A DNA stretch of 53,852 nt, taken from assembly GCA_022340515.1 (NCBI GenBank), contig JAJDNT010000056.1, positions 1-53,852 of the forward strand, in the 5' to 3' direction. Source of the DNA: Deltaproteobacteria bacterium (GTDB lineage: Bacteria > Desulfobacterota > Syntrophobacteria > BM002). The position numbers were made by a program, and so were the translations under genes. The notes under the pieces were generated by a model, which was not told the origin of the DNA, searched no databases, and saw only the letters and a program-made list of their open reading frames with translations. This document shows, in pieces, positions 13,732 to 53,852 of the stretch; position 1 is the stretch's first letter, and every line of letters begins with the position of its first letter.

Positions 13732-13775
13732 TGCGAGGTTTTAGGGGGTGTTTGCCAGAGGGGGTGATTAACCGC

Positions 13776-13975: not shown

Positions 13976-14034
13976 CCAGCCGCAATAACTTAAGAAATGA
14001 CAAGCGGTGTTGATGGTTTTCAAGGAGAGGAAAA

Positions 14035-14571: not shown

Positions 14572-14585
14572 GTGGAGGAAAGATC

Positions 14586-15041
14586 ATGCCGGAAGTGAAG
14601 AAAATACTGGTTGCCATCTGTTTTTCAAAGTACTGTCCCGGAACCTTTGCCTACGCTACTCGGCTGGCGCAGCAATTGGAGGCGGAACTTGTTGTGGTCA
14701 ACGTCATTAACATCCAAGATGTGCAGGCTATCGGTAAGATTGAATCCATGGGTTACTCCATAAGCGCCGAGGATTACGTCAAAGGTGTCAAAAAAGAGCG
14801 GCGGGCAGAGCTGGACAAAATGATTGCTGATTCCGGATTTCCCAAAGAGAGAATAAAAATCATCCTAAAGGTGGGCCACCCCTTTGAAGAGCTTTTGAAA
14901 ATCACCAAGGAAGAGAAAGTCGATATGGTGGTCATGGGAGCCAAAGGCCGGAGTAATGTTGAACATCTTTTAGTGGGTGGGGTGGCTGAGAAAATGTTCC
15001 GCCATTCACCGGTTACCGTGGCTTCATACCGAAGAAGATAG
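14586..15041 (+). CDS. universal stress protein (UspA family)
   Basis: 151 aa with a GGAGGAAA RBS. USP pattern is KILVAI...VDMVVMGAKGRSNVEHLLVGGVAEKMFRHSPVTV. Confidence 0.88.
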   Translation: MPEVKKILVAICFSKYCPGTFAYATRLAQQLEAELVVVNVINIQDVQAIGKIESMGYSISAEDYVKGVKKERRAELDKMIADSGFPKERIKIILKVGHPFEELLKITKEEKVDMVVMGAKGRSNVEHLLVGGVAEKMFRHSPVTVASYRRR

Positions 15042-15158
15042 CATGCCGCCAAGTCCCAATCCAGTTGGTGCAACTGGATACCGGACCCTTAGAATACTCC
15101 TGGAAGATTTTCGCCGCAAAGCCCAGCGAAGACCTTAAAACTGACAAAAGGTTTATCA

Positions 15159-37746: not shown

Positions 37747-40700
37747 TTATAAGCCGCTAACTACAAACTCTAGAGGCTTTTTCAAATCTGCCAATTTAAG
37801 CAGGCCTCCTGACTTTTCTTCGGTGTAAGGCCACTGAATGCCGCCTTCTTGCAAAAGCTCATAAGAGAGCCCCTGGTAGAAGGGTACAACTGACATTATT
37901 TCCTTATACACAGATTCGGCGTCCTTGTATGTGGCTCCGCCGGCATCAAGCCTTGCCAATAAATCTGCCAGAATGCGCCAATCTGGAAGGGCATCGCCCG
38001 GAGCAGGCAAAACTGGCGAGAGTTTTTGAGCTCGCCGTTCGGTGTTGGTGAAAGTCCCCTCCTGTTCCGTAGAAGCTGCGGAAGGTAAGATCACATCTGC
38101 CAGTTCCCCACACTGGGTAAGCAACATATCCTGCACCACCAGAAATTCGACCTGCTCTAAAGCCTCTTGAACTTTCTCCCTCTCAGGTTGAGTGGCCAGG
38201 GGGTTTTCTCCCATCAGATAAAGTCCTCTAACTTTTTTCTGCTGGGCCGCTGCGATTATCTCCCGGTAATCCAATCCAGCGGCGGCTGGCAATTGACCTC
38301 CCCAGGCCTTAGTTAATCTATCGTTGACTGCCAAGTCTGAGACCCTGACATGTCCTGGGTAGAAAGATGGTGTCATGCCCATGTCCATGGCACCCTGGGC
38401 GTTGATCTGACCATATAGAGGATAGATGCCACTTTGCGGCTGACCAATGCGGCCAGTGAGTATGGCCAGGTTGACTATGGCCTCGACCTTCTTGGCTCCC
38501 TTGGCTTGAGCCGTAACATCTTCCGAGTAGACCATGGCCAGGGAAGAGCTATTTACAAGAATTAGGGCCAGCTCTTCAAAAGCGCTCGGCCGTATGTCAA
38601 GCTTGGCTAAAGTATCTAGATGATCGAAGGATGCCAGGGATTTTTCCAGGGCCTCTATTCCCTTGGTATGAGCAGCTACGAAGTCTTTATTATAGAGTTT
38701 AAGCTCAAGCACGAGTTTGACCAGACTTTGAAGGAAATCAGCCGTGTATTCCTTGGGAACAACCAAGGCAGGATCGGCAAATTTAGCCAGAGTCACTTCT
38801 GAGGAGCTCAAAGTAATGAGACGACGAGCATGGGTGCGGCTGGCTCTCCGCATGGCAGTGGCTACGATGGGATTGTTTTCTTCAATAGAATTGCCCAGAG
38901 CGAAGATGACCTCCGCCTTTTCAATTGCGCTCAACGAATTGGTCATGGCGGACTTGCCCATGGCTTGGGAAAGAGTCGACAAAGTGGCCCGATGAGACTG
39001 ACCTCCCAGGTAATCCAAATTGTTACACTGTAACTGTTTGCGAAAAATCTTTTGAAGCAGGTAATTGGCCTCATTGGTAGCTCGCGGGGAACCTATGGCA
39101 GCCAATCCGCCAGGGCCATGCTCTTCCTTTAATCGCTTAAATTCAGCGACCACTCGCTCCAGCGCCTCCTCCCAGCTAGCCTCGACTAATTTACCGTTTT
39201 TCTTTAGCAGGGGGGTCTGGAGCCTTTTGCCCTTGGAGAGATAATCAAAGCTGTCAAAGCGGCCCTGACGGCAGGTATAGCCATAGCTGGGTGGGGCGGT
39301 ATTATTGGTGCTAACAGTGAAGAGCTTGTCGCCCTTAACGTTTAGCAGAAGGTTACACCCACAGCCACAGTGAGGGCAAATAGTCTCCTTTTGCTCGTAA
39401 TGAAATGGGCCGGGTTTGCCGCTTATGCGTTCCTCCAATGCTCCGGTGGGACACAAATCAAGGCAGAGACCACAGAAAACGCAGTTTGAGTTAAGACTGG
39501 GAGTATCCTCAAAGTCGATGGCATCAGAACATTGGAAGAAAGTACAGGCCTCATAACATTGTCTACAGCGTATACACTTATTAGGATCCACGGCGATAAA
39601 CTGATGATCGTCGCGGCGGGAAACCTCATCGAGGGATATTTGAGGCTTGATCCTAGTAGTGGGTTCCAAGCCAAAATCAAAGGCGAATTTCCTTAGTCTG
39701 CAGTCAAAGGCATCCATGCAGCCACAAGAGAGACAGCGCTCCGCCTCCCTTCGCGCACCCTCCTCGGAAAGACCCAACTCGATTTGCTCATAGTTCTTAA
39801 TCCGTACATTAGGCTCCAATTCCGGCATGAGTTCACGAGGGGCTGAAGTAACCCTGGAGGTAAACTGTTCCTTCTCAATAGTTTCAAGATCACCCTTTAA
39901 GATATTAAAAGGCTTGGGCGGGCCAAACACTTCTTTCTCACGCAAATAAAGGTGTATGGCCATTGCCGCCTTGCGGCCATCAGCCAAGGCTCCAACCACG
40001 GTCTCAGGACCGCGATAGACATCGCCGCCGGTGAATACGCCCTCGAGACCAGTGTGCAAACTGTCCGGATCAGCCCCGAAGGTATTCCAGCGAGTAGTAG
40101 GAACACCCTCAACGCCTTTGTCGGATTCCACCGGGGAAAGATCAGGAAATTGCCCAATGGCTGCAATCACCATATCCACTGGAATCAAGGTCTCCGAGCC
40201 TTCGACAGGTACGGGTCGCCGCCTGCCGCTAGCGTCCGGCTCGCCGAGTTCCATTTTGATATACTCGAGTTTGTCAACCTTGCCGTTACTGCCAAAAAGC
40301 CGGACTGGAGCAGCCAAGAAATGGAACTTGACTCCCTCTTCTTCAGCACCATGAATTTCTTCGGGACTGGCGGGCATCTCTTCTCGAGAACGCCGGTAAA
40401 TAATGGTTACAGTATCTGCACCCATCCGCACACTGTTGCGGGCCGCGTCAATGGCAACGTTTCCGCCACCGATTATGGCAATGTTCTTACCAATGTTAAG
40501 CGGCTTGCCGAGAGCAAGGTCAACAAGGAAGTCTACCCCAGACCAGACACCCTGAAGGTCTTCTCCCACTACGCCTAGTTTTCGTGTATCCCAAGCGCCG
40601 ATGGCTAGAAGAAAGGCGTCGTACCCTTCCTGCCTGAGAGATTCGACGGTGAAGTCTTGGCCCCACTTTAGTCCAAACTTGACCTCGATGTTACCCAACT

Positions 40701-41466
40701 CGAGGATTCCGTCAATTTCCCAGTCGAGAATTTTCTTGGGTAAACGATATTCAGGAATGCCATAACGAAGCATGCCGCCCAGGGCAGGCATGGCGTCAAA
40801 GATGGTGCTACCGTGGCCCAGTCTGCGGAGATAGTAGGCTGCCGAAAGGCCAGCAGGTCCACCGCCAATGATGGCCACTTTACGACCGGAGAGTTCTGCC
40901 AGAGGCGGTGGGTTACGTTTGCCTGAGTGCATCTCAAAGTCGGCGACAAATCGCTTGAGGTGGTTGATATTGATGGGTTCATCCACCAGGTTCCGGTTGC
41001 ATTTGTACTCGCAGAAATGAGGGCAGACCCGACCTATGGTAAGGGGCATGGGCAGGCGCTCCCGAATAAGCTTTAAAGCCTCGATGTACTGTCCCTGGGC
41101 AATGAGGCCAATGTAGCCCTGAATATCTATTCCCGCCGGACAGGTGAGCTGACAAGGGGCCACACAGTCACCATAGTGTTCCTTGAGGATGAGTTCGAGC
41201 ATGAGCTTACGGATTTGATAAATTTCATCAGAATCGGTAGTAACCACCATGCCTTCTTGGATTTCAGTGCTGCAGGAGGCCTGAAGGTGTTCCTCTCCCT
41301 CCACTCGAACGACGCAGAGTCGACAACTCTCGATAGGTCTAAGAACCTCGTTAAAGCAGAGTGTTGGGATATGAATGTCGTTTTGCCTGGCCACCTGCAA
41401 AATAGTGTTGCCCGCTTCGGCCTCAAATTCATGCCCATTGATGGTTAGTCGAATCTTCTCCTTCAT
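37747..41466 (-). CDS. multidomain FeS flavoprotein: 2Fe-2S ferredoxin + GltD-like NAD(P)H/FAD oxidoreductase + 2x[4Fe-4S] + formate-dehydrogenase-alpha/NuoG-like molybdopterin-oxidoreductase domain (apparently non-catalytic)
   Basis: 1239 aa. The N-terminus is IRLTINGHEFEAEAGNTILQVARQNDIHIPTLCF...CRLCVV. The GltD-type region is CPAGIDIQGYI...GRVCPHFCEYKC, VAIIGGGPAGLSAAYY and IAIIGGGNVAIDAA. The ferredoxin motifs are CIRCRQCYEAC and CVFCGLCLDLCP. The MopB N-terminal cluster is CPHCGCGCN. By eye, GSPRATNEANYLLQK...NNLDYLGGQSHRAT aligns with FdhF ...NNVDxCARVUHGPS, placing Ser at the Sec/Cys position. The protein ends shortly after IQWP, so the C-terminal molybdopterin-dinucleotide-binding domain is absent. 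Confidence 0.85.
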   Translation of the reverse strand: MKEKIRLTINGHEFEAEAGNTILQVARQNDIHIPTLCFNEVLRPIESCRLCVVRVEGEEHLQASCSTEIQEGMVVTTDSDEIYQIRKLMLELILKEHYGDCVAPCQLTCPAGIDIQGYIGLIAQGQYIEALKLIRERLPMPLTIGRVCPHFCEYKCNRNLVDEPININHLKRFVADFEMHSGKRNPPPLAELSGRKVAIIGGGPAGLSAAYYLRRLGHGSTIFDAMPALGGMLRYGIPEYRLPKKILDWEIDGILELGNIEVKFGLKWGQDFTVESLRQEGYDAFLLAIGAWDTRKLGVVGEDLQGVWSGVDFLVDLALGKPLNIGKNIAIIGGGNVAIDAARNSVRMGADTVTIIYRRSREEMPASPEEIHGAEEEGVKFHFLAAPVRLFGSNGKVDKLEYIKMELGEPDASGRRRPVPVEGSETLIPVDMVIAAIGQFPDLSPVESDKGVEGVPTTRWNTFGADPDSLHTGLEGVFTGGDVYRGPETVVGALADGRKAAMAIHLYLREKEVFGPPKPFNILKGDLETIEKEQFTSRVTSAPRELMPELEPNVRIKNYEQIELGLSEEGARREAERCLSCGCMDAFDCRLRKFAFDFGLEPTTRIKPQISLDEVSRRDDHQFIAVDPNKCIRCRQCYEACTFFQCSDAIDFEDTPSLNSNCVFCGLCLDLCPTGALEERISGKPGPFHYEQKETICPHCGCGCNLLLNVKGDKLFTVSTNNTAPPSYGYTCRQGRFDSFDYLSKGKRLQTPLLKKNGKLVEASWEEALERVVAEFKRLKEEHGPGGLAAIGSPRATNEANYLLQKIFRKQLQCNNLDYLGGQSHRATLSTLSQAMGKSAMTNSLSAIEKAEVIFALGNSIEENNPIVATAMRRASRTHARRLITLSSSEVTLAKFADPALVVPKEYTADFLQSLVKLVLELKLYNKDFVAAHTKGIEALEKSLASFDHLDTLAKLDIRPSAFEELALILVNSSSLAMVYSEDVTAQAKGAKKVEAIVNLAILTGRIGQPQSGIYPLYGQINAQGAMDMGMTPSFYPGHVRVSDLAVNDRLTKAWGGQLPAAAGLDYREIIAAAQQKKVRGLYLMGENPLATQPEREKVQEALEQVEFLVVQDMLLTQCGELADVILPSAASTEQEGTFTNTERRAQKLSPVLPAPGDALPDWRILADLLARLDAGGATYKDAESVYKEIMSVVPFYQGLSYELLQEGGIQWPYTEEKSGGLLKLADLKKPLEFVVSGL

Positions 41467-41724
41467 GAAATCCCTCTTTTAGATGGTTTGGATGGAAAGA
41501 CAATCTTTGCACCTGTGGCGCATCATAACCACTCAAGTTTCCGCGCAAGTTCCATCAGGTTTTTGCTGGCCAGGTTGGCCACAGGAAGGGCAAACAAAGC
41601 TGATCATATAACACACATTCTTCAAACAGTCATTAACTTCGGCAATTTTTGGACTTACTGCAAGGAAAAATGTATTAATCCCTCACCCGCCGGGATTACG
41701 GCTCATACTCTTCACATCAGGGCT

Positions 41725-41925
41725 CTAACGGATAAGATAGATGGCGAAAGCGAAGACGATTGCTATTTCAATGGCAAATATCAAGGAGAAAAGTATGTAT
41801 TTGGAGACAGGAAAGTCTTCAAAGATTTTGTTCGCCTTCTGCAAAAAACTAGCGCCTATTGGAGAGGAATACATCCTAAAAGGGTCATTGGATTTGGTCC
41901 CTTGCCCAGCTGCATGCGCGGCCAT
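41725..41925 (-). CDS. possible small tail-anchored membrane protein (66 aa)
   Basis: The ATG at 41925 lies 7 nt after a strong AAGGAG RBS (reverse complement of 41933-41938). A C-terminal hydrophobic helix reads YILFSLIFAIEIAIVFAFAIYLI. It lies 259 nt upstream of the 1239-aa gene and on the same strand. No family recognised. Confidence 0.4.
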   Translation of the reverse strand: MAAHAAGQGTKSNDPFRMYSSPIGASFLQKANKIFEDFPVSKYILFSLIFAIEIAIVFAFAIYLIR

Positions 41926-42183
41926 CTTAATGCTCCTTGTCGACTGATATGATTAGGCCAAAATCGCTGGCCATTATAGGCAGGTCGGTTTTACAGTCAT
42001 GCAAAAACCAGCTGAGGGAGAAAAGGATCGATCTCACTTATTTTGTGAATAATATCCCTTTGTCCGGCGACGGAGTATAACCTTTTTTAAGCTGATGTAC
42101 AAGGGGAAACTCGGTTGATTTCGCATTTCTGATTTCGGATTACGGACTTATAGTAATTAAGTAAAGAAATTTATCTTTTGTCC

Positions 42184-42213
42184 TTGACGGTCGTAGGGAT
42201 TTCTGTTACAAAT
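42184..42213 (+). promoter_or_regulatory. candidate sigma70-type promoter of the nuo operon
   Basis: TTGACG at 42184-42189, a 17-nt spacer, then TACAAA(T) at 42207-42213, about 125 nt upstream of nuoA. This is a pattern match only. Confidence 0.3.
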
Positions 42214-42337
42214 CACGTCGTTTGTGCCAAATAGTACCAAATGATCTTATCCCGCCTCGCATGCCGTTCAAAGAACAATATGGGTAACGCTTGAGGCTGT
42301 TCCCCTGTGGCTGGCCCTTGGCAAAAGAGAGCATAGT

Positions 42338-42718
42338 ATGACAGCTCAGGTCTTACACGACTTCCTCTATGTGGGAGTCTTTTTGGTGGTAGGTATTGTC
42401 TTTGCCATTACGCCGATAATCATCTCGTGGTTGATTGGCGGCAGAAGCGTGGGTGTCAAACGGGCGGAGACTTACGAGAGTGGTATGCCCACCATCGGTA
42501 GTGCTTGGATACAATTCAGTGTTGCTTACTACATTTATGCCCTTATCTTTCTTGCCTTCGACGTGGACGTTCTCTACCTATTTCCGGTAGCCTTGGCCTA
42601 TGACAAGGGATATGTCATTCGCGACTTCATTGAGGTTTTCATCTTTATTGCTATTCTGTCCTTGGCCATTGTCTACGCCTGGCGTAAAGGAGTTTTCACT
42701 TGGCAGAGAAGGAGCTAG
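42338..42718 (+). CDS. nuoA: NADH-quinone oxidoreductase subunit A
   Basis: 126 aa with three TM helices. The motif [38 protein letters not shown] is present. It is the first gene of the operon. Confidence 0.92.
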
Positions 42719-43224
42719 CCCCAGGCCCTCGGGTGCAATTTGCGGTTGTAGAAGAGGTACTCAACCTGTGTAGGGCCAATTCCCTTTGGCCTATGACCTT
42801 TGGTCTAGCCTGCTGCGCCATCGAAATGATGGCAGCAGGAGCCAGTCGCTTCGACCTGGACCGTTTCGGAGCAGGAGTGTTCCGCCCCTCCCCCCGGCAG
42901 TCGGACTTAATGATCGTAGCGGGGACCATTGCCAAAAAGATGGCCCCCACGATAGTTACCCTTTGGGAGCAGATGCCTGCACCAAAATGGTGTATTGCCA
43001 TGGGTAATTGCGCCATCTCAGGAGGTCCCTTCCAATACGATGGTCAGTATGCCATAGTGCCTGGTGCTGATCTTATTGTGCCGGTGGATGTTTATGTGCC
43101 CGGCTGTCCGCCTCGACCCGAGGGGTTAATTCAGGGATTTCTGGCTTTAGAGGACCTAATAACCAAAGGCGAAAAACGTAATGTCTTTAGAAGATTTAAA
43201 AGAAGAATTGTCAAAGGTCGTTGA
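42700..43224 (+). CDS. nuoB: NADH-quinone oxidoreductase subunit B
   Basis: 174 aa. TTG start 7 nt after AAGGAG. The N2 cluster ligands are [18 protein letters not shown] and VPGCPPRPE. Confidence 0.93.
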
Positions 43225-43654
43225 TCCGGCGCATATACGGTCGCGGAATTACGAGAAAAACGGCTTTCTTTTAGAGGTTGAAGCCAAGGCCAAGGAGGTG
43301 GAAGCTTTGGCCAAAGCAGCCCGCGAGGCAGATTGTTTCCTTGAGTCTATCACCGCGGCGGACTTTACCGAGGGGGTTCAAATTATCTACCAGTTTAACT
43401 CCTTCTCCAGTGTATCTAGAACATTGGTGCGAGTGCAACTGGCAAGAGGCGAATCGATTCCCACCGTCAGCAGCATTTACGATGCGGCGCTCTGGTACGA
43501 GCGAGAAGTCTTCGACCTGTACGGCATTCAGTTCGACAATCACCCCGATCTGCGCCGCCTTTTGCTACCGGATGATGCTGACTTCCATCCACTTTTGAAA
43601 GACTACGGCAAAGTCCACGCCTTTAGGAGCACGGAAGAAATCTATGGCGAATGA
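43181..43654 (+). CDS. nuoC: NADH-quinone oxidoreductase subunit C
   Basis: 157 aa. The 30-kDa subunit motif [31 protein letters not shown] is present. It overlaps the nuoB 3-prime end, so the start is somewhat uncertain. Confidence 0.88.
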
Positions 43655-44762
43655 GTTCCTTGAGCCCGTAACCGAGCAGACCTTTTATCTGAATATGGGG
43701 CCCCAGCATCCTAGTACGCACGGGGTCCTGAGGCTCTTCCTCAAACTGGATGGGGAGTACATAGTTGAGGCGGACCCTATAATCGGTTACGGACACCGCG
43801 GCCATGAAAAAATGGCGGAGAGCCACCTCTACGAGCAATTTCTGCCAAACTCTTCCCGCATGGATTACCTCGCAGGTCTGATATACAACCATGGTTATGT
43901 TGCCGCGGTGGAAAAGATGGTGGGAATTGCAGTGCCACCGAGGGCAGAATACATTAGAGTTATCTGTGCTGAGTTGAACCGCATCTCCAGCCACCTCCTC
44001 TGGTTCGGCACCTATGTCATGGACTTGGGTGGCTTCACTCCCTTCCTTTATTGTTTTGATGATCGGGAAAACATCCTGGATATTCTGGACCGGGTCAGCG
44101 GCTCCCGTCTGACTTACAGCTACTGTCGTTTCGGCGGGGTGGCCAGGGACTTGGATGACGAGTTCATCAGGGAGACACGGAAATTCATCGACCGTTTGCG
44201 CAGTCGCTGGAATGACTATCATAACCTAGTCACCAAGAATGTGATCTTTATTCATCGAACCAAGGATGTGGGGATAATCAACCGTGAATTGGCCCTGCGC
44301 TTTGGCTGCACCGGACCAATCCTAAGAGCTGCCGGGGTAGCTTACGATATCCGGAGGGCCGAGCCCTATTCGGTTTATTCCGACTTTGACTTCGAGATTC
44401 CCACCGGCACTACCGGGGATGCTTTGGCTCGCTATATGGTCAGGTTGCAGGAGATGGAGCAGAGCCTGCGCATTATCGAACAGGCGCTGGACAGGTTGCC
44501 GCAAGGGCCGTTCAGGGCAGCGGTGCCCCACAAAGTGAGGCCCGCCAAAGGAGACTATTACTTCGCAGTTGAGTCTGCCCGCGGTGCCCTGGGATATTAT
44601 ATAGTGAGTGACGGAACCTCTTATCCCTACCGACTCAAAGCCCGGGTTCCGTCCTATGGTAACCTGCAGGTCCTCACCGACGTACTTCCCGGAACCCTGG
44701 TAGCTGACACCATCTCCATACTGGGAAGCATTGACATCGTCGTTCCCGAGGTAGATCGTTAG
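43644..44762 (+). CDS. nuoD: NADH-quinone oxidoreductase subunit D
   Basis: 372 aa. Motifs are NMGPQHPSTHGVLRL, GYGHRGHEK and a C-terminal SIDIVVPEVDR. Confidence 0.95.
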   Translation: MANEFLEPVTEQTFYLNMGPQHPSTHGVLRLFLKLDGEYIVEADPIIGYGHRGHEKMAESHLYEQFLPNSSRMDYLAGLIYNHGYVAAVEKMVGIAVPPRAEYIRVICAELNRISSHLLWFGTYVMDLGGFTPFLYCFDDRENILDILDRVSGSRLTYSYCRFGGVARDLDDEFIRETRKFIDRLRSRWNDYHNLVTKNVIFIHRTKDVGIINRELALRFGCTGPILRAAGVAYDIRRAEPYSVYSDFDFEIPTGTTGDALARYMVRLQEMEQSLRIIEQALDRLPQGPFRAAVPHKVRPAKGDYYFAVESARGALGYYIVSDGTSYPYRLKARVPSYGNLQVLTDVLPGTLVADTISILGSIDIVVPEVDR

Positions 44763-44781
44763 TACATAAGCGGAGAAAAGC

Positions 44782-45786
44782 ATGGCCGCCTGGCAAAAAC
44801 TGGTTAACTATCTAGGTCCGGATTTGACCGTGATTATTGTGGGGTTAGTGGGTGTCCTGGCTCTGGTGCAGGTCAACGCTCTGTTTCTGGTCTGGTTGGA
44901 ACGAAAGGTCGCTGCCCACATCCAACTTCGAATAGGTCCTAAAGAGGTTGGGCCTTTTGGTATTTTGCAAACTATTGTTGACGGTGTCAAACTGGTGAGT
45001 AAGGAACTCATCACCCCGAGCCATGTGGACAAGAAACTCTTCATCTTGGCACCCGTGGCCATATTCCTGCCGGTTTTGGTGAGCTTTGTGGTCATTCCCT
45101 TTAGTGAGAAGTTGCAGATCCGGGATTTAAACGTCGGGTTGCTAGTAATTTTCGCCTTTTCCACCTTTAACGTCCTGGCAATTCTTGTGGGTGGTTGGTC
45201 TTCCAACAACAAGTATTCTTTGCTTGGTGCTGTGCGCTCGGTGGCCCAGAATGTTGCCTATGAAATTCCCTTACTGCTTACAGTCCTTAGCGCTCTTCTC
45301 TGGTCTAATAGTCTGCAAATGTCTGAAATCGTGGAGTCACAGTCTACCGTGTGGAACGCCTTCTGGATGCCGGTGGCCGCATTAATTTATCTTATTTGCG
45401 CCACGGCTGAGACTAACCGGGCGCCCTTTGATATCCCCGAGGCGGAATCAGAACTGGTGGCAGGTTTCCACACTGAGTACGGTGGAATGCGTTTCGCCCT
45501 GTTCTTCTTGGCCGAGTATTCCAATATGCTTATTGTAGCGGCGGTGGCAACTACCCTGTTCTTTGGTGGCTGGAAGCCCTTGCCTTTTCTAGGGTTTCTG
45601 CCCGTGCCTGGCTTGATTTGGTTTTTTCTCAAGACCTATGTGCTGATCTTTGTCGTAATCTGGGTTCGTTGGACTTTTCCACGGTTGCGATTCGATCAGC
45701 TCATGAACTTCTGTTGGAAGATCATGATTCCGGCGGCACTGCTTCATCTGATCGTTTATGCCGGGATTATTAAGTTTATAAGGTAA
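44782..45786 (+). CDS. nuoH: NADH-quinone oxidoreductase subunit H
   Basis: 334 aa. Motifs are [41 protein letters not shown] and FLAEY. It starts 19 nt after the nuoD stop, leaving no room for nuoEFG. Confidence 0.95.
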
Positions 45787-45860
45787 CGGATTGACGAATT
45801 GAGGGATTGTGGGATTGGGGAATTATTGATTCTAAATTGGCTTACTAAATTCCTAAATTC

Positions 45861-46313
45861 GTGAATTGGAGCTACATGGGTATGATCAGAGACATTTTGG
45901 TAGGTGGCTGGAGCCTGATAGCAGGGATGGCGGTGACTATCCGGCGTATTTATCGGCCTGTGGTTACGGTGCAATACCCACGGAAACATTTGTATATGAG
46001 CCCCGCCTACCGCGGGCATATTGAGTTCAAGAGCTTCCCGGAAACCGGCACCCATAACTGCGTTGCCTGTGGTACTTGCATGCGATTCTGCCCTACCAAG
46101 GTAATCAAAGTTCAGGGCGAAAAGACTCATACCCATAGCGAAAAAAGAGCCAGCCTCTATTTTATCGATTTTTCTCATTGCAGTCTCTGTGGTCTGTGTG
46201 TGGCCAACTGTCCCACCCAGACTCTGAAATTTTCAGAAGAATACGACTTAGCCCATTATAGCCGTTGGGGAGGGGTAGTTGATCTCCTCCAGCGGTTGGA
46301 GGAATCGGCATGA
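45861..46313 (+). CDS. nuoI: NADH-quinone oxidoreductase subunit I
   Basis: About 145-150 aa. It has two 4Fe-4S ferredoxin motifs, CVACGTCMRFCP and CSLCGLCVANCP. The start is either GTG 45861 or ATG 45876. Confidence 0.9.
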   Translation: MNWSYMGMIRDILVGGWSLIAGMAVTIRRIYRPVVTVQYPRKHLYMSPAYRGHIEFKSFPETGTHNCVACGTCMRFCPTKVIKVQGEKTHTHSEKRASLYFIDFSHCSLCGLCVANCPTQTLKFSEEYDLAHYSRWGGVVDLLQRLEESA

Positions 46314-46846
46314 ACTCGGTTCAGAGCCTTATCCAACCACATCTTCTCGCTCAGGCAGGGTTTGCCGCCGTGGTTGTACTTACTTTTGCCGGAGCCCTCA
46401 TAGCGGTATTTCCCCGAAACATTCTCTACAATATCTTGGGTCTCATCGTCTGCCTCACCGGGGTGGCCGGCCTTTTCGTTTATCTGGGAAGCCCATTCAT
46501 TGCGCTCATGCAGCTGCTCATTTACGTGGGGGCCATCTGCATCTCCATTATCTTCGCCATCATGCTCTCCAGACCCCTTCACCTGAGTGTCCCCAAACGG
46601 CGTTTGCCTAAGGTAGGGTTAGCTGCGGGAGTGGGTGCGGTGGTTTTCCTTATGCTTGCGGGGATTATAAGCCGTACCCCTTGGCAGCCAGCCGTGAGTC
46701 GCAGCAGTGATTGGTCGGTGACTACCCTCGGACATTATTTGCTTACCCGGTACGATCTGGTTTTTGAAGCAATCTCTTTGGTGCTGTTAGTGGCAATCCT
46801 CGGCGCCATAGTAATCTCCGGTTATGCCCGCAGGAGGCCGTCGTGA
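46310..46846 (+). CDS. nuoJ: NADH-quinone oxidoreductase subunit J
   Basis: 178 aa. The motif FIALMQLLIYVGAICISIIFAIML is present. It overlaps nuoI by 4 nt, consistent with translational coupling. Confidence 0.9.
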   Translation: MNSVQSLIQPHLLAQAGFAAVVVLTFAGALIAVFPRNILYNILGLIVCLTGVAGLFVYLGSPFIALMQLLIYVGAICISIIFAIMLSRPLHLSVPKRRLPKVGLAAGVGAVVFLMLAGIISRTPWQPAVSRSSDWSVTTLGHYLLTRYDLVFEAISLVLLVAILGAIVISGYARRRPS

Positions 46847-47151
46847 ACAGTCTTACTACCTATCTTTTTATCGCGGCTTTGTTGTTCAGTCTCGGGATTT
46901 TCGGTGTTTTCCAGCGCCGCTCCCTCATCGGTATGCTCATCGCCATCGAACTTATGCTCAATGCAGCCAGCATAAATTTCATGGCATTTAACCGATTTCT
47001 GGCGCCTGATCCGATTGTGGGTCAGATATACACTTTATTCATCATGGGCATTGCAGCTGCTGAGGCGGCCATTGCTCTTAGTATCATAGTAGCTTTATTC
47101 CGCAGGCTTCGCTCCATCAATATCGAGCGGGCCCAAGAACTACGAGGCTAA
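46843..47151 (+). CDS. nuoK: NADH-quinone oxidoreductase subunit K
   Basis: 102 aa with three TM helices. The motif MLIAIELMLNAASINF is present. Confidence 0.92.
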   Translation: MNSLTTYLFIAALLFSLGIFGVFQRRSLIGMLIAIELMLNAASINFMAFNRFLAPDPIVGQIYTLFIMGIAAAEAAIALSIIVALFRRLRSINIERAQELRG

Positions 47152-47153
47152 CC

Positions 47154-49067
47154 ATGACCTCTTCCTGGTTCCAAGATCCAACTCTGTTGGCTGCCGCCTT
47201 GGCAGCCCTGCTGCCTTTCGTCACTTTCGCTTTGATCATGATTTTCACCCGGCCATATCCAAAACTGTCGGCCGCTATTTCCATTGCAGCTGTCAGTGTC
47301 TCCCTAGTATGTGCCATTTTCCTTCTTAGCAGCCATTGGCACCTGGAAAAACCCATACAATACGCCGCCAAGTGGATAATTTCAGGGGATATCTACATTC
47401 CCTTCGGATTTCTGCTGGACCAACTCAGTCTGGTGATGCTCACCATTGTTGCGGTTATCTCATTTCTGGTTCAGGTTTACTCTTTGGGCTACATGGCAGG
47501 AGACCCGGGGTTTGCCCGCTACTATGCCTTCCAGTCCCTCTTCGCCTGGGCCATGATGACCATGAGCATAGCGCCTACCATGCTGCAATTTTACGTTTTT
47601 TGGGAGTTGGTGGGACTGGCCTCCTATTTGCTCATTGGCTTTTACTATGAAAAGTTCAGCGCCTCAGAGGCGGGTAAAAAGGCTTTTGTCATGACCCGTT
47701 TCGGGGATATTGCCTTTTTCCTCGGACTGCTTCTGGTGTTGTTTAACTTCGGCAATCTAAATATCCTGGATATGAATTCCGTTGATGTAACCGCCCGTAT
47801 GTCACCAGCCTTGATAACCCTATCCGCCATATTGATTTTCGGTGGTGTTGCCGGCAAGAGCGCCCAATTCCCCTTGCTAACCTGGCTGCCCGATGCCATG
47901 GAAGGTCCCACCCCGGTGAGTGCCTTGCTTCATTCGGCCACTATGGTGGCGGCAGGGGTTTACATGTTTGCCCGGATTTTTCCCTTCTTCAGCCATTCGG
48001 CCGCTGCCATGAACACGTTTTTGGCCATCGGTACCATTACTATGCTGCTGGCCTCCACCATGGCCATGGTGACCAGGGACATCAAACAGGTGTGGGCCTA
48101 CTCTACTGTCAGCCAGCTTGGCTTCATGGTCATGGGACTGGCAGCGGGCAGCTACTTCGCCGGGATTTTTCATCTAACCACCCATGCTGGGTTCAAGGCC
48201 CTGCTCTTTCTCTGCTCGGGAGTTTTTATCCACGAGTTCGAAACCAATGACTTTTTTGAAATGGGTAAATACGGGGGCCGTGGCCTTAAGGTGCCAATGG
48301 TGTGTATGACTGTGGCCGCCGCGGCCTTGTCGGGCCTGCCGCCGCTCTCCGGCTTTTTTAGCAAAGAGGCGATCATGGGCGGTTTGGCCGGACTCCACAA
48401 CCCCGTCTGGCTGTGGGCAGGGTTGTTGGGTGCTTTTCTCACCGCTTATTATTCTTTCCGACTGATTTTTTCCATCCTCTTTCCACGGAAAATCGAAAAA
48501 ACTCATCAGGGAGAGCATGGTGGCCATGGTCATGGCCATGATGGCGGCCATCATCATGTTGGTATTTACTGGGTGATGGCTTGGCCTTTGATCATCCTTG
48601 CCTCTATCACCCTGGTACTTGGTTTCTTCCACACTCCTTTGGAAAATTTCCTGGTTGGCCATCACGGTGGTGCTGAGGCTCACGGTGGTCACCACGCCTG
48701 GTTGCTCTATGTGGCAGTGGGTTTGGCCCTTTCGGGCGTGGGACTTGCCTGGCTCGAGTTTGGCCGCAAAGGGGCCTCTCAGGTAGGTTTTGTCGAAAAG
48801 ATAGAGCCCATGAGCAGGCTCTTTGCCAACCGCTGGTATATTGACCATTTCTATCGACGCTTTCTCGATTATTTCATCTACGGAATTGTCTCGAACCTAT
48901 TTACCAGAAACGACCGCCGGGTGATTGACGGCGGCATCGACGGAATTTGCAGGGCCACAGTTGGCAGTGGCTGGGCGCTTTCCTTCTTGCAGTCGGGAAT
49001 GCTCCAGTACAATTTAATGGTGATGTTTGCTGTACTGGCCCTGGTGGCACTTTACTTCTTCTTTTAA
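47154..49067 (+). CDS. nuoL: NADH-quinone oxidoreductase subunit L (antiporter-like, with His-rich insertions)
   Basis: 637 aa. Motifs are WELVGLASYLLIGFYYEK, AGKSAQFPLLTWLPDAMEGPTPVSALLH and a C-terminal lateral-helix region. His-rich stretches are HQGEHGGHGHGHDGGHHH and GHHGGAEAHGGHH. Confidence 0.95.
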   Translation: MTSSWFQDPTLLAAALAALLPFVTFALIMIFTRPYPKLSAAISIAAVSVSLVCAIFLLSSHWHLEKPIQYAAKWIISGDIYIPFGFLLDQLSLVMLTIVAVISFLVQVYSLGYMAGDPGFARYYAFQSLFAWAMMTMSIAPTMLQFYVFWELVGLASYLLIGFYYEKFSASEAGKKAFVMTRFGDIAFFLGLLLVLFNFGNLNILDMNSVDVTARMSPALITLSAILIFGGVAGKSAQFPLLTWLPDAMEGPTPVSALLHSATMVAAGVYMFARIFPFFSHSAAAMNTFLAIGTITMLLASTMAMVTRDIKQVWAYSTVSQLGFMVMGLAAGSYFAGIFHLTTHAGFKALLFLCSGVFIHEFETNDFFEMGKYGGRGLKVPMVCMTVAAAALSGLPPLSGFFSKEAIMGGLAGLHNPVWLWAGLLGAFLTAYYSFRLIFSILFPRKIEKTHQGEHGGHGHGHDGGHHHVGIYWVMAWPLIILASITLVLGFFHTPLENFLVGHHGGAEAHGGHHAWLLYVAVGLALSGVGLAWLEFGRKGASQVGFVEKIEPMSRLFANRWYIDHFYRRFLDYFIYGIVSNLFTRNDRRVIDGGIDGICRATVGSGWALSFLQSGMLQYNLMVMFAVLALVALYFFF

Positions 49068-49079
49068 GGTGAAGCACAC

Positions 49080-50558
49080 ATGAGTATGGAGTTTGCCAAT
49101 TTTCCCTATCTTACCGCCATCCTCTTGAGTTGTGTGGTGGGCCTACTGGTGATCCTTTTCATTCCAGATGAGCGTAAGATGCTGATCAAATGGGTTAGCC
49201 TGGTCTTCTCCGGGATCACCATGGTGCTCTCCATCTACCTCTTCTTCGCCTACGATAAGACCCAAGGAGGCCTCCAGTTTGTCGAGAGAGTTCTGTGGGT
49301 CAAGTCACTGGGCATCTATTATTTCAATGGGGCTGACGGTTTCAATCTTCCCATGTTGATGCTTACAGGCATTGTGCTCTTCACCGGAGTTCTTACCATG
49401 TGGGAGCTGGAGACCCGGGTCAAGGAGTTCTTTGCTTTCACCTTCCTGCTGGTTGCCGGGGTTTTCGGCGTTTTCATGAGCATGGATCTCTTTTTCATTT
49501 TCGTTTGGTACGATGTTTCTCTCTTTCCCATGTATCCGCTCATTGCCATTTGGGGCAGCACCCGCAAAGAATACGGTGCCATGAAGCTCACCCTTTATCT
49601 CTTGGCTGGAAGTGCTTTGATTCTGCCGGGCATCCTTTATCTCTTCGTGAATTCGGGCCTCAACACCTTCGATATAGTCGCCCTTATGCAGCCGGGCACT
49701 TTTACTCCTTTCCAACAGAAGTTCGCCTTCATCCTCCTCTATCTCGGTTTCGGCATCTTAGCGGGTGTTTGGCCCTTCCACACCTGGTCTCCGGTGGGAC
49801 ACGTGGCCGCGCCCACTTCAGTGAGCATGATTCACGCCGGGGTCCTCATGAAGCTAGGAGCTTTTGGGGTTTTACGCGTGGCCATATTCCTCTGCCCAGA
49901 GGGCTGGCAGTACTGGGCCCAGCTCATGGCGGTGCTGGCCACCTGCGGCATCGTCTACGGTGCCTTCGTGGGGCTGGCCCAGACGGACCTCAAATATGTC
50001 ATTGGCTACTCCAGTGTGTCCCACATGGGTATCGTTGGCCTGGGGTTGGCCACGGTTACCGTAGATGGATTGAATGGTGCGGTGTTTCAGATGTTCGCCC
50101 ACGGGGTTATGACCGCACTATTATTTTCCTCCGTGGGCTACATTTACGATAAGACCCACACAAAAATGATTCCGGAGCTGGGCGGTATGAGCAGGACAAT
50201 GCCCGTTGCCTCGGGTTATTTCATCGTGGCGGCGCTGGCTGGAATCGGCGTTCCCTGCCTGGCTAGTTTCTGGGCAGAGCTACTGGTCTTTATCTCTGCC
50301 TTCAAGACTTATCCGATTCGGGGTGCTCTGGCCATCTGTGGCCTGGTAGTAAGTGCCCTGTTCATGTTGCGGGTGGTGCAGCGGACCTTTTATGGTGAGA
50401 AAAGAGAGGAGTTCGACCACCTGCCCGATGTCTCCTTCGGTCTGGGTATTCCCAGGATGATCCTGGTTGCGGTGATTGTCTTTTTTGGCCTCTTTCCGTC
50501 AGTGATGCTTGATGTGATACAGGTCGCCTCAATTCCCTTTATTAACGGGTTGCCGTAA
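49080..50558 (+). CDS. nuoM: NADH-quinone oxidoreductase subunit M
   Basis: 492 aa. Motifs are [30 protein letters not shown] and [10 protein letters not shown]. Confidence 0.95.
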
Positions 50559-51985
50559 TGAAATTGTGGATTCTCTTTATTCCTGAACTCTACTGTTTGT
50601 TAATGGGTGTGGTTTTCTTTGGCTTGGCAATGGTTGCCCGCCCCAATCCTAGGCGTGACTACTTCGTGGCACTTCTTTTGGCGTCGGCAGGGGTAGTTGT
50701 GGCTCTGGCCTCGATAAAGCTGGAGGGAACCCTATTTTTTGAGGCCTATAGGGTAGATCTTTTTTCCCAGGTTTTCAAAGTCATGCTGGCCATGGGCTTC
50801 TTCTTGGTTATCTGCTTTTGCACAGAGCTCAACGGCATAGAGGAGCGGCACCATCCCGAGTTTTATCTGTTCCTCACAACCTGCACCTTGGCTATGATGT
50901 TGCTGGTGAGCAGCGTCGAGCTTTTGACCATTTATGTCGCCCTGGAGCTCTCCAGTTATTCACTTTATATATTGGTACCTTTACGCCGAGGACACGGAAT
51001 CGATGTTGAAGCCGGCATCAAATACCTCATGGTGGGGGCTACCTCTTCAGCAGTTATGCTCTTCGGCCTCTCTTTTATTTTCGGGGTTACCCATACTACC
51101 TACGTGGTAGACATTATCAATGTCCTTCCCAGTGTTATTAGCAGTCCGGCTGCAATTGTGGGTCTACTTCTTGTCCTGTGTGGTTTCTTCTTCAAGTTGG
51201 CCGTATTTCCCTTCCATTTCTGGGCTCCTGATGTCTACCAGGGAGCTGCCAACCAGGTGACCGCCTACATTGCCTCCGCCTCCAAAGTGGCGGCTGTGGC
51301 CATTATCATGAGGATGGTGTCTCTTGTCGGCGGCGACAGTAAGTATCTGGTGCATGTGCTGGTAACCCTCTCAATTGCCTCCATGACCTTGGGGAATCTG
51401 GTTGCCATTGTGCAAAAGGACATGAAACGTCTTTTGGCTTATTCAAGTATTTCCCATGCAGGCTACGTCCTCATCGGAATTCTCAGTATGAGCCAAACCG
51501 GTTATGCCAGTGCCATATTCTATGCCCTGGCCTATCTGGTGATGAATCTTTGCTGTTTCCTGGTGGTTATAAAAGTTGCCCAGGACGGCAGTGACTTGAA
51601 AATTGCTCAACTGGCAGGGTTGCATCGCCGCTCTCCCATATTGGCCATGGCCCTGATGCTAGCTGTTTTTGGCCTGGCAGGTATTCCACCTACTATAGGG
51701 TTTACCGGAAAATTCTTGGTGTTCGCCGCAGCCATGGAGAAAGGCTACATCACCCTGGTTATTATCGCTATGATCAATGCCACCATTTCTCTTTACTACT
51801 ACATCTTGGTGGTGAAGGCAGCATACCTAATGGAGCCTGATGTGGAGCAGCCCCGGCTTGCAGTGTCAATACCAACTAAGCTACTCACTGGGGCGCTAGT
51901 GACCTTGATGGTAGTGTTTGGGGTTTTTCCCCATTATTTGCTGGAGGTGGCCAGAGCAGCCGCCAGGATGTTGCTGCAAGTGTAA
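50558..51985 (+). CDS. nuoN: NADH-quinone oxidoreductase subunit N
   Basis: 475 aa. Motifs are [29 protein letters not shown] and [12 protein letters not shown]. Its start overlaps the nuoM stop. Confidence 0.95.
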
Positions 51986-52025
51986 GTTAGCTTAAAATGC
52001 CTAAAATGAACTAGAGCGAATTAGA

Positions 52026-52769
52026 ATGGAACCTCAAGTCCCAAAATTTTGCCGAATCAATGAGCAGCAAGCCTGCATAACCATTTGTGAACCTTCTGGA
52101 ACTTGTACTTGTGACTGCCATGAGGTTCGCCAAGTACTGGAAAATGAGATCGCCGCCATGAATCTTGGGCTAACCGTTGGCACCATGAAGGTTGGCTGCA
52201 ACGGTGACTGTCCTTACGGGGTTCTGGTGGGCTTTCCCCAAAGGGGCTTTTTCTATGACCAGGTTGATGGAGAGCTGGCCAGGGAAGTGGTGAGCGGGAC
52301 CTTGGCCCAAGGCCACATACTTTTTGATCACTTGCACATAGATCCTTTAAAGGCTACCTCCGGTAAAATTTTATATGACCGATCAGGGTTCATCGCTACC
52401 ATCGACGATAGTTTTTGCATGGTTAAAGTTGCCCAGTATTTTCTGAAGTTTGAGGAGGGTGTTTCCTGCGGTAAATGCGTGCCCTGCCGGGTTGGTTCCC
52501 TTGAGCTTCGGGAGATCCTAGATCGTATTATTCAGGGAAAGGGTGAGCCAGAGGATCTTCAGAGGCTTGACTTGGTTTGCAGAGCCATGCAGGATGCGCC
52601 CTTCTGCGACTTTGCCAGGACTACCAGCGGTCCTGTAGTGGCCATCCTCAAATATTTCCGCTCTGAATTTGACAAACACGTTGACCAGAAGGTGTGTCCG
52701 GCTGGTGTTTGCGAGGGGCTGGCAAAGGAAGTGAAGGAAGAGAAAGCAGAAAAAGCAAGGCAAGAATAA
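52026..52769 (+). CDS. FeS protein fusing a thioredoxin-like [2Fe-2S] (NuoE-type) domain to a NuoF C-terminal [4Fe-4S] domain, without the FMN/NADH-binding domain
   Basis: 247 aa. The N-terminal Cys pattern is ICEPSGTCTCDC ... VGCNGDCPYGVLVGFP. The C-terminal part is FCMVKVAQYFLKFEEGVSCGKCVPCRVGSLEL...APFCDFA, which matches the NuoF/HydB N3-cluster region (ESCGKCxPCReG...C). It is the last gene before the terminator at 52800. Confidence 0.8.
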   Translation: MEPQVPKFCRINEQQACITICEPSGTCTCDCHEVRQVLENEIAAMNLGLTVGTMKVGCNGDCPYGVLVGFPQRGFFYDQVDGELAREVVSGTLAQGHILFDHLHIDPLKATSGKILYDRSGFIATIDDSFCMVKVAQYFLKFEEGVSCGKCVPCRVGSLELREILDRIIQGKGEPEDLQRLDLVCRAMQDAPFCDFARTTSGPVVAILKYFRSEFDKHVDQKVCPAGVCEGLAKEVKEEKAEKARQE

Positions 52770-52799
52770 TCGCGCACCGCTAAAAATAGGCATAGGGAT

Positions 52800-52830
52800 G
52801 GGGCGAGTTCATTCTCGCCCTTTTTTATTT
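52800..52830 (+). terminator. rho-independent terminator closing the nuo operon
   Basis: GGGGCGAG-ttcatt-CTCGCCC at 52800-52820 is followed by TTTTTTATTT at 52821-52830. Confidence 0.85.
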
Positions 52831-52831
52831 A

Positions 52832-53074
52832 GTCCGTTGTCCGAGTTAATTGTCCGTGGGAGCTCACTTCGTTCGCGGCAGAGCGCCATAGCCACTAAGC
52901 ACTATGCACTAAGGACTGGGCACCAAAGGCAGGAGAACATATTTCGGACGCGATAATAAGGGGTTTCGGTTCAGAGTTGCAGTGCTCAGTGCCTAGTAAG
53001 CATGATTCTATGTTCTATGCTCCATGCCCTTTGTCTTGTTTGCAACGGACTACGGACCACTGACAACGGACTGG
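52832..53074. repeat. nested imperfect palindrome (~245 nt) built from word repeats
   Basis: The outer arms are gtccgttgtccgagttaattgtccgtgg (52832-52859) and caacggactacggaccactgacaacggactgg (53043-53074). The inner arms are cactaagcactatgcactaagg (about 52893-52915) and gcagtgctcagtgcctagtaagc (52978-53001). A ctatgc array lies at ~53008-53030. Confidence 0.7.
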
Positions 53075-53852
53075 CTAATTTACTACAATTAGGGAACAGT
53101 CACTGGCGCTTTGTAGCATCTTTGCTGCCCTGCTCCCCAGGTTAAACTCACTGATTGCAGACAGACCTCTCCGGCCGAAGGCTAAGATATTATAGTCGCC
53201 TCGGCTGGCCTCGGCGATAATATCGCGGGCGATACCGCGCATTCGAGTTGGCATCTGGTGGGTAACTTGCTTCTCGTCCATTCCAGCTTTGGTGAAAACC
53301 TCCTTGGCTCTGGCGAAGATACCTGCCATTCGTTCCTCATGATTTGAGCGCCACTTTGCTACCAGAGCGTCACGCTCGCTCCGTTCCCTCTCGTCCAGAA
53401 TGTGGCCATGGTCCCAGAACTCCGGAGGCTTGGCTGGCATCACATGGAACAAAGATATCCGCGTTCCGGGAAATGGGGCAAAATACTGAGCCAGGTGAGC
53501 CAAGATGCGTTCGGCATAATCAGAATCATCCAGGGCCGCCAAGATGTTAGGTGGTTTCAATTGAGGGGTGCCGATCACCCAAACAGGTTGTGCCTCTGAG
53601 TATTGGCAAATCTTCGCGGTAGTACTTCCCAGGAGGAATCTCTTCACAGCAGAGCGACCCTTTCTAGCAAGGACGATAGCGGCAAATTTGTTACTTTCGC
53701 AAGCAGTCAGAATATTCTGCGCAGTGTCTACGCTTTTCAACATGCGCTCTAATTCAAGACGGGAGCGCTTGTAACCCATTTCGAGCAACAATTCGACCGC
53801 TCTGTCTAAAACGCGCTGGGCCTGCCGTTCCTGGACCTTTTCCCATTCTGAC
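53075..53852 (-). CDS. tandem-domain universal stress protein, C-terminal part (5-prime end beyond the right edge of the window)
   Basis: The track ORF starts at an internal TTG (53791). The same frame stays open to position 53852 (...SEWEKVQERQAQRVLDRAVELLLEMGY...). Two USP-type ends are present: GRSAVKRFLLGSTTAKICQYSEAQPVWVI and GRRGLSAISEFNLGSRAAKMLQSASDCSLIVV. Confidence 0.8.
   Translation of the reverse strand, partial: SEWEKVQERQAQRVLDRAVELLLEMGYKRSRLELERMLKSVDTAQNILTACESNKFAAIVLARKGRSAVKRFLLGSTTAKICQYSEAQPVWVIGTPQLKPPNILAALDDSDYAERILAHLAQYFAPFPGTRISLFHVMPAKPPEFWDHGHILDERERSERDALVAKWRSNHEERMAGIFARAKEVFTKAGMDEKQVTHQMPTRMRGIARDIIAEASRGDYNILAFGRRGLSAISEFNLGSRAAKMLQSASDCSLIVVN

Follow-up and report, generated by a model that had tools for sequence, protein, structure and literature searches.

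A flavin-free relative of bifurcating-enzyme B subunits encoded after nuoN, a candidate input subunit for an 11-subunit complex I of Syntrophobacteria

Known electron-input modules and the locus

Complex I-like enzymes that lack NuoE, NuoF and NuoG (EFG-less) can receive electrons through other subunits, such as NuoX and NuoY in Campylobacter and Helicobacter or NdhS, NdhV and NdhO in cyanobacterial NDH-1, with flavodoxin or ferredoxin as donor. NDH-1 is cited among the EFG-less cases, and the 11-subunit Nuo without NuoEFG is well known in anaerobes, where the electron donor is an acknowledged open question (PMC11238625). As summarized there, Moparthi and Hagerhall (2011) sought a common donor protein without finding one and proposed that the core is a docking platform for various partners (PMC11238625). 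Here we describe a small gene (the mini gene, encoding the mini-protein) that directly follows nuoN in an EFG-less nuo operon of a Deltaproteobacteria bacterium assigned to the Syntrophobacteria. The operon lies in contig JAJDNT010000056.1 (assembly GCA_022340515.1), the 53,852 nucleotides (nt) of which were analyzed as a whole and are called the window below.

The described enzymes closest to the mini-protein belong to the Bfu family, the B subunits of which include HydB of HydABC, NfnB and StnB. In NfnABC and StnABC, NADPH reduces the flavin adenine dinucleotide (FAD) of a GltD-like domain and electrons run through clusters A7-A6-A3-A2-A1 to B1; bifurcation takes place at flavin mononucleotide (FMN) with B1 and C1, and ferredoxin is reduced at B3/B4 (PMC11829005; PMC10482914). 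The four-helix bundle of NfnABC subunit B packs on the N-terminal domain of A (A1 to B1), and the C subunit is held by the Rossmann domain of B (PMC11829005). HydB of T. maritima also has a Zn "hinge" site of three Cys residues and one His residue that is not conserved in Nqo1 (PMC9499530); this HydB-type site is named B2 in the Bfu nomenclature (PMC11829005). A junction of the two enzyme classes was predicted by Schut et al. (2022) as "Nuo-Bfu" in Geobacter, Deferribacteres and Nitrospirae, in which a complete BfuABC set lies in the middle of a 14-gene cluster and confurcation of NADH and ferredoxin is predicted (PMC9304861). Their survey could not detect the mini-protein family because it required an FMN domain in BfuB (PMC9304861).

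A reduced B subunit encoded directly after nuoN

The initial annotation of this DNA, made from the letters alone, described the mini-protein as NuoE/NuoF-like, with a thioredoxin-like 2Fe-2S N-terminus and a NuoF/HydB-type 4Fe-4S segment at its end but without the FMN/NADH core that normally lies between them. Profile searches gave the same architecture. The sole Pfam domain was PF10589 (NADH_4Fe-4S), which matched residues 134-218 over all 85 profile positions (E 1.2e-24). Neither Complex1_51K (PF01512) nor SLBB (PF10531) gave a Pfam match in the mini-protein even at E<=10. Fer4 likewise had no Pfam match, the C-terminus extending only 18 residues beyond a CPAGVC motif. The NCBIfam NuoF models aligned with the mini-protein only through their C-terminal ~100 positions: TIGR01959 matched at positions 311-410 of 410 with 79.2 bits versus a cut-off of 558.65, and NF008436 scored 52.2 bits versus a cut-off of 749. 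The N-terminal 2Fe-2S domain was weak in the single sequence (NF041613/NF041612, E 0.007-0.01) and was recovered at the profile level. A family profile of 25 homologues aligned to HydB residues 5-98 (independent domain E 2.5e-14) and again to residues 427-541, skipping the ~330 residues of the FMN core (~99-426), and PF01257 was matched by 14 of the 25 family members at E<=1 (best 8.7e-4). An AlphaFold2 model (predicted local distance difference test 87.5, predicted template modeling score 0.83) shows a thioredoxin-like beta-alpha-beta fold and, C-terminal to it, a four-helix bundle, which Foldseek superposed on that of HydB, NfnB and StnB with a root mean square deviation (rmsd) of 1.3-2.0 A.

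Ligand conservation was read from an alignment of the 25 homologues, in which identity falls to 43%. Invariant throughout were the four cysteines of the 2Fe-2S pattern, the four of the CxxCxxC...C motif typical of N3/B1 4Fe-4S clusters and, in addition, C131, H218, C224 and C229 (Table 1). The latter residues align with the HydB motifs "TCMVD" and "HI..K.CPA..C" and make up a third conserved metal site, a putative Zn site. The initial annotation had counted two Fe-S centers and no flavin; the polypeptide indeed carries no flavin site, but the third site had been missed. Three further cysteines are near-invariant: Cys9 (52050-52052), in an N-terminal "FC" motif, and Cys27 and Cys29 (52104-52112), which are flanked by the first and second 2Fe-2S ligands and replace one another in different family members. 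Roles as alternative ligands or in partner contact are possibilities for these residues.

When the family profile was searched against solved structures, the best match was NiFe-HydB (7t2r_B, E 5e-50, 173 bits), and the other top matches were FeFe-HydB (7q4v_B, 8a6t_B and 7p5h_B), the WOR-Bfu chain 9mqx_B, NfnB (9n5u_B and 9bov_B) and StnB (8oh5_B). The HydB/NfnB/StnB-type chains scored 129-173 bits, each through two stretches (the thioredoxin domain and residues ~427-541). In contrast, respiratory NuoF chains scored at most 77 bits and matched through the C-terminal bundle only. These scores, together with retention of the Bfu-specific Zn site, argue for a Bfu-type origin, and descent by deletion from the NuoE and NuoF of complex I was rejected on the same grounds. 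The closest kin of the mini-protein are Bfu B subunits rather than respiratory NuoF. Judged by its sequence, the mini-protein is a reduced, NuoF-homologous B subunit of the HydB/NfnB/StnB lineage, which keeps the B5, B1 and B2 sites and has lost both the Rossmann/ubiquitin-like FMN-NAD(H) core and the C-terminal 2x4Fe-4S ferredoxin domain (B3/B4).

The Bfu B subunits, which gave the best sequence and fold matches, share with the mini-protein the thioredoxin-like 2Fe-2S domain of B5, the B1 bundle and the B2 Zn site including CPAxxC. Unlike them, it lacks the Rossmann FMN/NAD(H) and ubiquitin-like (SLBB) domains (~330 residues) as well as the B3/B4 ferredoxin domain. Its gene is the last of a nuo operon and has no C-subunit gene nearby, and the protein can neither bind NAD(H) nor bifurcate. 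With NuoF (51-kDa, Nqo1) and NuoE it shares the N3-type bundle of PF10589, the NuoE-type thioredoxin-like 2Fe-2S fold and an association with nuo genes. It differs from them in having no FMN site, in carrying the Zn site that Nqo1 lacks (PMC9499530), in the position of its gene, which follows nuoN rather than lying between nuoD and nuoG, and in its affinity to Bfu B.

The Pfam survey of the open reading frames (ORFs) identified no nuoE, nuoF or nuoG in the nuo operon. The mini gene starts 40 nt after the nuoN stop at 51985, as initially annotated, and the terminator that had been placed at about 52800-52830 is the top-ranked terminator-like site in 41400-53200. The hairpin reads GGGGCGAG-UUCAUU-CUCGCCC followed by a U run, and its centroid stem energy is -17 kcal/mol. 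The site scan found no promoter-like site or good terminator-like site in the nuoN-mini gap. Given the 40-nt spacing, the lack of such sites within it and the terminator after the mini gene, cotranscription of nuoN and the mini gene is likely. Expression of the mini gene in situ is supported by two contigs of rhizosphere metatranscriptome X25 that fall inside the gene (52245-52395 and 52406-52556) at >=99% identity. Marine-sediment metatranscriptome X28 gave good coverage of nuoN from related strains.

Table 1. Positions of the mini gene, its predicted metal sites and the associated genes in the window
Feature	Position	Strand	Extent	Basis or context	Ligands
Mini gene	52026..52769	+	ATG start, 247 aa	ORF; PF10589 only Pfam match; FMN-less, ferredoxin-domain-less derivative of a Bfu-type B subunit	
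Thioredoxin-like 2Fe-2S domain	52074..52325	+	~aa 17-100	Equivalent of Bfu "B5" site	Cys21, Cys31, Cys58, Cys62
Four-helix bundle with 4Fe-4S	52425..52679	+	aa 134-218	Equivalent of NuoF N3 and Bfu B1	Cys148, Cys151, Cys154, Cys194
Putative Zn ("B2", hinge) site	scattered in 52416..52712	+	Codons at 52416, 52677, 52695, 52710		Cys131, His218, Cys224, Cys229
nuoA, B, C, D, H, I, J, K, L, M, N	42338..51985	+	11 genes	11-subunit complex I-like operon; Pfam match for each ORF	
Intrinsic-terminator-like hairpin	52800..52831	+	8 bp, 6 G-C	Stem 52800-52821, then UUUUUUAUUU; 31 nt past the mini-gene stop codon	
StnC/NfnA (Bfu)-type subunit gene	37747..41466	-	1238 aa	Divergent from nuoA; Pfam and PDB matches	
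66-aa ORF	41725..41925	-	One C-terminal transmembrane helix	Directly upstream of StnC-like gene; motif YxSPxG...AN.I.EDFP.SKY	
Usp gene	53075..53791	-		Convergent with mini gene; PF00582	

A word-indexed search found ~96 clusters (90% identity) that share the length (~240-285 aa) and architecture of the mini-protein, the lowest identity being 45%. Most belong to uncultured Syntrophobacteria and "Deltaproteobacteria"; the sources are metagenomes of sediment, rhizosphere and wetland, together with metagenome-assembled genomes that bear one of these two labels. The taxonomic range of the family is thus that of metagenome-derived matches. Existing annotations of its members include "(2Fe-2S) ferredoxin". 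Conserved gene order gives strong support to the initially annotated position, last in an EFG-less nuo operon: in 10 of the 10 independent loci read (the window, L001-3, L004/5, L006, L087, L088, L089, L090, L093 and L091) the mini gene lies immediately 3' of nuoN on the same strand, with a gap of 10-174 nt. The linkage extends to a relative of 47% identity (L088) and to a long-tailed variant (L091), and it is kept where the nuo genes are split, as in two close relatives. Accession CP070689.1 (L087) has the order nuoIJKLMN-mini. In CP070692.1 (L006) only nuoN and the mini gene are still together, nuoABCDHIJK being ~50-70 kb away (L094); nuoL and nuoM were not found in the CP070692.1 sequence examined. 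A scan of genome contigs used SCGKC[TV]PCR and similar patterns, which are common to all NuoF/HydB proteins; all 80 listed loci encode full-length HydB/NuoF, and apparent long tblastn alignments (for example L072, residues 2-245) are artifacts across the SLBB region.

An exhaustive search of representative sequences added several variants that depart from this pattern. Proteins P0146, P0149-P0151 and P0155 have the same module plus a disordered, low-complexity acidic extension of 150-400 residues, rich in Ala, Glu, Pro and Val, that ends in polylysine. These long-tailed forms lack the Cys and His residues of the Zn site (SMV replaces CMV, and there is no CPAGxC); the one long-tailed locus seen (L091, 812-2749) also follows a nuoN-like gene. 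P0162 (463 aa) has lost the CxxCxxC 4Fe-4S motif and keeps the thioredoxin-domain cysteines and the CPxGxC motif, so that the 4Fe-4S cluster can be dispensed with in at least one lineage, unless the copy is decaying. P0169 is an independent FMN-less form in which the ferredoxin domain is retained. The loss of Zn-site residues in P0146 and P0149-P0151 and of 4Fe-4S cysteines in P0162 shows that sites are dispensable in some lineages, and off-pathway clusters are known in complex I and NfnA (PMC11829005). From these observations it could be argued that the mini-protein is vestigial: like the off-pathway clusters N1a and N7, its own clusters would carry no catalytic current, and it would only stabilize the peripheral arm or aid assembly. 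We regard such a non-redox role as very unlikely in view of the invariance of all eight Fe-S cysteines in 25 homologues of identity as low as 43%, the intact reading frames of the ~96 clusters and the in situ expression of the gene.

A StnC/NfnA-type flavoprotein and a small membrane peptide linked to the nuo genes

The initial annotation overlooked a large gene divergent from nuoA that encodes a flavoprotein of the StnC/NfnA type. The system as a whole is thus probably not flavin-free, a flavin being supplied in trans. The Pfam domain order of the 1238-residue product is Fer2_4, Fer4_20 plus Pyr_redox_2 (GltD-like), 2x4Fe-4S, Molybdop_Fe4S4 and Molybdopterin. These correspond to a NuoG-like N-terminal 2Fe-2S domain, a GltD/NfnL-like FAD/NADPH module with two 4Fe-4S clusters and a pterin-less Fdh/NuoG-like domain. 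The protein has seven Fe-S motifs in all and lacks a catalytic selenocysteine (Sec) or Cys. It matched C. saccharolyticus NfnA (9bov_A) with E 8e-231 over residues 4-1032 and S. ovata StnC (8oh5_C) with E 1e-210, and T. sibiricus NfnA was also matched. These alignments identify it as a full-length homologue of the NADPH-dependent bifurcating transhydrogenase large subunit. A role as formate dehydrogenase was considered and rejected: Ser824 (Ala in two orthologues) occupies the position of the TGA-encoded Sec of the genuine FdhA of L090, the 1238-residue protein has no Molydop_binding domain, and a solved homologue carries no pterin (PMC11829005). Formate was accordingly rejected as donor.

Directly upstream of the StnC-like gene is the 66-residue ORF, which matches no Pfam family. 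Using tblastn, homologues of 45-59% identity were found in L094, L004, L090 and L095, each near a StnC-like gene, and the peptide may be a membrane tether. ORF 41488-41952 (+, 154 aa), also located between the StnC-like gene and nuoA, was set aside as spurious since it has no Pfam match and overlaps the conserved minus-strand ORF.

The place of the StnC-like gene varies among genomes. Three loci, namely the window, CP070692.1 (L094) and L095, which shares its contig with L093, have the gene and the 66-residue ORF in divergent orientation to nuoA. In L004 and L090 the StnC-like gene instead comes directly after the mini gene, with the 66-residue ORF between the two (L090) or past the Usp gene (L004). 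CP070689.1 also encodes a StnC-like protein (P0430, a "partial" record of 888 aa). In total, the StnC-like gene was present in 6 of 6 checkable genomes and stood beside nuo or the mini gene in 5. No 2Fe-2S_thioredx-type ORF that could encode a HydC/NuoE-like C subunit was found near the nuo or StnC-like genes in the window, L004, L090, L094 or L095.

These gene orders bear on another explanation, in which the mini-protein is a stand-alone adaptor that docks on NuoI/NuoCD and feeds electrons from soluble reduced ferredoxin (or flavodoxin) into the Q-module, the StnC-like enzyme being separate and no more than a genomic neighbor. The extra subunits of cyanobacterial NDH-1 are a precedent for a ferredoxin adaptor, anaerobic Syntrophobacteria are rich in ferredoxin-linked metabolism, and the mini gene is bound more tightly to nuoN (10/10 loci) than to the StnC-like gene. 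Moreover, ferredoxin is the donor generally proposed for the 11-subunit Nuo (PMC11238625). We nevertheless think a stand-alone adaptor improbable. The C-terminal 2x4Fe-4S domain, which is the ferredoxin binder of Bfu B subunits, is precisely what was lost, whereas the four-helix bundle, through which B binds the large subunit in the solved complexes, was kept. The StnC-like gene and the 66-residue ORF are present in 6/6 genomes, and all five loci with enough context show their independent linkage to nuoA or to the mini gene.

Among more distant short forms, the FMN-less relative P0160 (242 aa; L092, 1-2494) is encoded between a GltD-like (Pyr_redox_2) gene and an Fe-S protein gene resembling the N-terminus of NuoG/HydA, an arrangement reminiscent of a StnC-like partner that has been "split". 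The association of an FMN-less B protein with a GltD-type flavoprotein therefore recurs. The Usp gene is another frequent neighbor: homologues of 59-89% identity are adjacent in L087, L089 and L004, Usp genes are also present in L093 and L006, and Usp may be a regulatory partner of the module. In L090 (14646-20690) the StnC-like gene is followed by a selenocysteine (in-frame TGA) FdhA with a NuoG-like N-terminus, and the opposite strand encodes FdhD, a small HydA-N-terminus-like protein and a full-length HydB-type B subunit; thus one genome holds both a reduced and a complete B subunit.

A candidate NADPH-oxidizing input module

The "electron wire or adaptor" role initially given to the mini-protein is plausible. 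With moderate confidence, we favor a more specific version in which it is the Fe-S connector of a non-bifurcating, NADPH-oxidizing input module for the EFG-less Nuo. From the observed domain content, metal ligands, family and gene linkage we infer how the parts would assemble, what the donor would be and how electrons would exit to NuoI. The mini-protein would be produced together with the 11 Nuo subunits and would assemble with the GltD-NuoG fusion flavoprotein and the single-helix 66-residue peptide, the three substituting for NuoEFG. NADPH would be oxidized by the FAD of the GltD-like domain. As in the solved NfnABC/StnABC structures, the Fe-S chain of the large subunit would carry the electrons to its N-terminal 2Fe-2S cluster, which would hand them to the 4Fe-4S cluster of the mini-protein. 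Two exit routes to N6a of NuoI can be drawn, one through B1 and then B5 of the mini-protein and the other through the A2-A4-A5 side branch of the large subunit; NuoI/NuoB would then pass the electrons on to menaquinone. The mini-protein would thus serve both as Fe-S connector and as docking piece, and the complete enzyme would couple NADPH:menaquinone oxidoreduction reversibly to proton pumping. In syntrophic or sulfate-reducing Syntrophobacteria it could conceivably run backward, the proton-motive force driving electrons from menaquinol to NADP+. The proposed module could not bifurcate because it has no FMN, NAD(H) site, HydC/NuoE-like partner or ferredoxin domain. Retention of the bundle and the absence of a HydC/NuoE-like gene fit the proposal, since in NfnABC the bundle contacts A and the C subunit requires the Rossmann domain of B.

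Comparison with the described enzymes places this candidate module between several of them. Like StnABC/NfnABC of S. ovata, C. saccharolyticus and T. sibiricus, it has a full-length large subunit of the same domain order with a pterin-less Fdh/NuoG-like domain, and it keeps the contacting bundle. In contrast to those enzymes, it has no NAD(H)/FMN site, ferredoxin-reducing domain or C subunit, its genes are tied to nuo and a membrane peptide, and the predicted acceptor is quinone via Nuo rather than NAD+ plus ferredoxin. The predicted Nuo-Bfu enzymes are alike in joining a complex I-type membrane arm to Bfu-family input subunits, with menaquinone as the presumed acceptor, whereas the candidate module combines an FMN-less B with an A of the StnC/NfnA type (GltD-containing, NADPH) and has no C. 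As with NuoX/NuoY and NdhS/V/O, lineage-specific small subunits would replace the NADH module and fit the 11-subunit core to another donor, although those proteins are unrelated, lack a NuoF-type 4Fe-4S bundle and work with no GltD-type flavoprotein.

Alternatively, the StnC-like protein and the mini-protein could form a soluble two-subunit enzyme, a cytoplasmic non-bifurcating oxidoreductase passing electrons from NADPH to ferredoxin or another acceptor, that is coregulated with Nuo and unattached to it. The solved homologues NfnABC and StnABC are soluble tetramers (PMC11829005; PMC10482914), and a GltD-like module in place of the NuoG domain that contacts NuoI would make docking non-trivial. 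An unattached enzyme seems unlikely to us: a position right after nuoN on the same strand, 10-174 nt away in 10/10 loci, exceeds the usual needs of coregulation, the transmembrane helix of the peptide encoded beside the StnC-like gene points to a membrane location, and the polylysine end of the long-tailed variants could bind membranes.

Several points weigh against a Nuo-attached NADPH module. The grouping of the mini-protein, the StnC-like protein and Nuo into one complex is inferred from domain content, homology and gene linkage. By our own reading of the domain order, the GltD-like module of NfnA/StnC replaces the domain of NuoG that holds the His-ligated N5 cluster and feeds NuoI, and specificity for NADPH over NADH is assumed from homologues. 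The inter-domain orientation of the AlphaFold2 model departs from that of full-length B subunits (rmsd 9.5 A with both domains aligned). No RNA contig of metatranscriptomes X25-X28 crosses the nuoN-mini junction, these contigs being short and sparse. Finally, the adjacency of the StnC-like gene is not universal, the gene lying outside the sequence fetched for L001, L087 and L089, and its presence in the L087 genome is taken from the "partial" 888-aa record only.

All parts of the proposed module come from known families; the combination and the reduced B subunit are new. No prior description of an FMN-less or truncated HydB/NuoF after nuoN, or of a StnC/NfnA protein linked to nuo, was found in the searchable literature, outside which most subscription journals lie. 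The locus is a concrete candidate input module with defined genes for an abundant sediment lineage, and its predicted activity is piericidin-sensitive NADPH:menaquinone oxidoreduction. If the proposal is true, an "11-subunit" Nuo of anaerobes would for the first time have a dedicated electron-input module defined at the gene level, and the locus would show how a bifurcating Bfu enzyme can be cut back to a simple electron wire and put to new use in respiration. Such a reduction is relevant to the acquisition and exchange of the complex I N-module in evolution. We suggest only tentatively, at somewhat less than even chances, the full scenario in which an uncultured Syntrophobacteria lineage with a 14-subunit complex I replaced NuoEFG with a StnC/NfnA-type NADPH/FAD-Fe-S subunit, an FMN-less HydB remnant and a tail-anchored 66-residue peptide, giving a reversible, proton-pumping NADPH:menaquinone oxidoreductase that evolved by stripping of the bifurcation site. 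For annotation, a specific name could replace "(2Fe-2S) ferredoxin" or "NuoF Fe-S binding domain protein" where these labels now stand on proteins encoded after nuoN.

Two other regions of the window were recorded in passing. A 361-aa Pyr_redox_2/Pyr_redox_dim protein with a GTG start is encoded at 24092-25180 (-); its Pfam profile is matched only from position 80 of 291, which leaves two possibilities, that the protein lacks the N-terminal FAD-binding part or that its true start is further upstream. The region 10324-17234 (+) encodes an NMT1_3-type binding protein and, after it, two large fused permeases of the DctM type (705 and 691 aa). The permeases are paralogous, both contain a DUF3394 segment, and two small ORFs lie between them.

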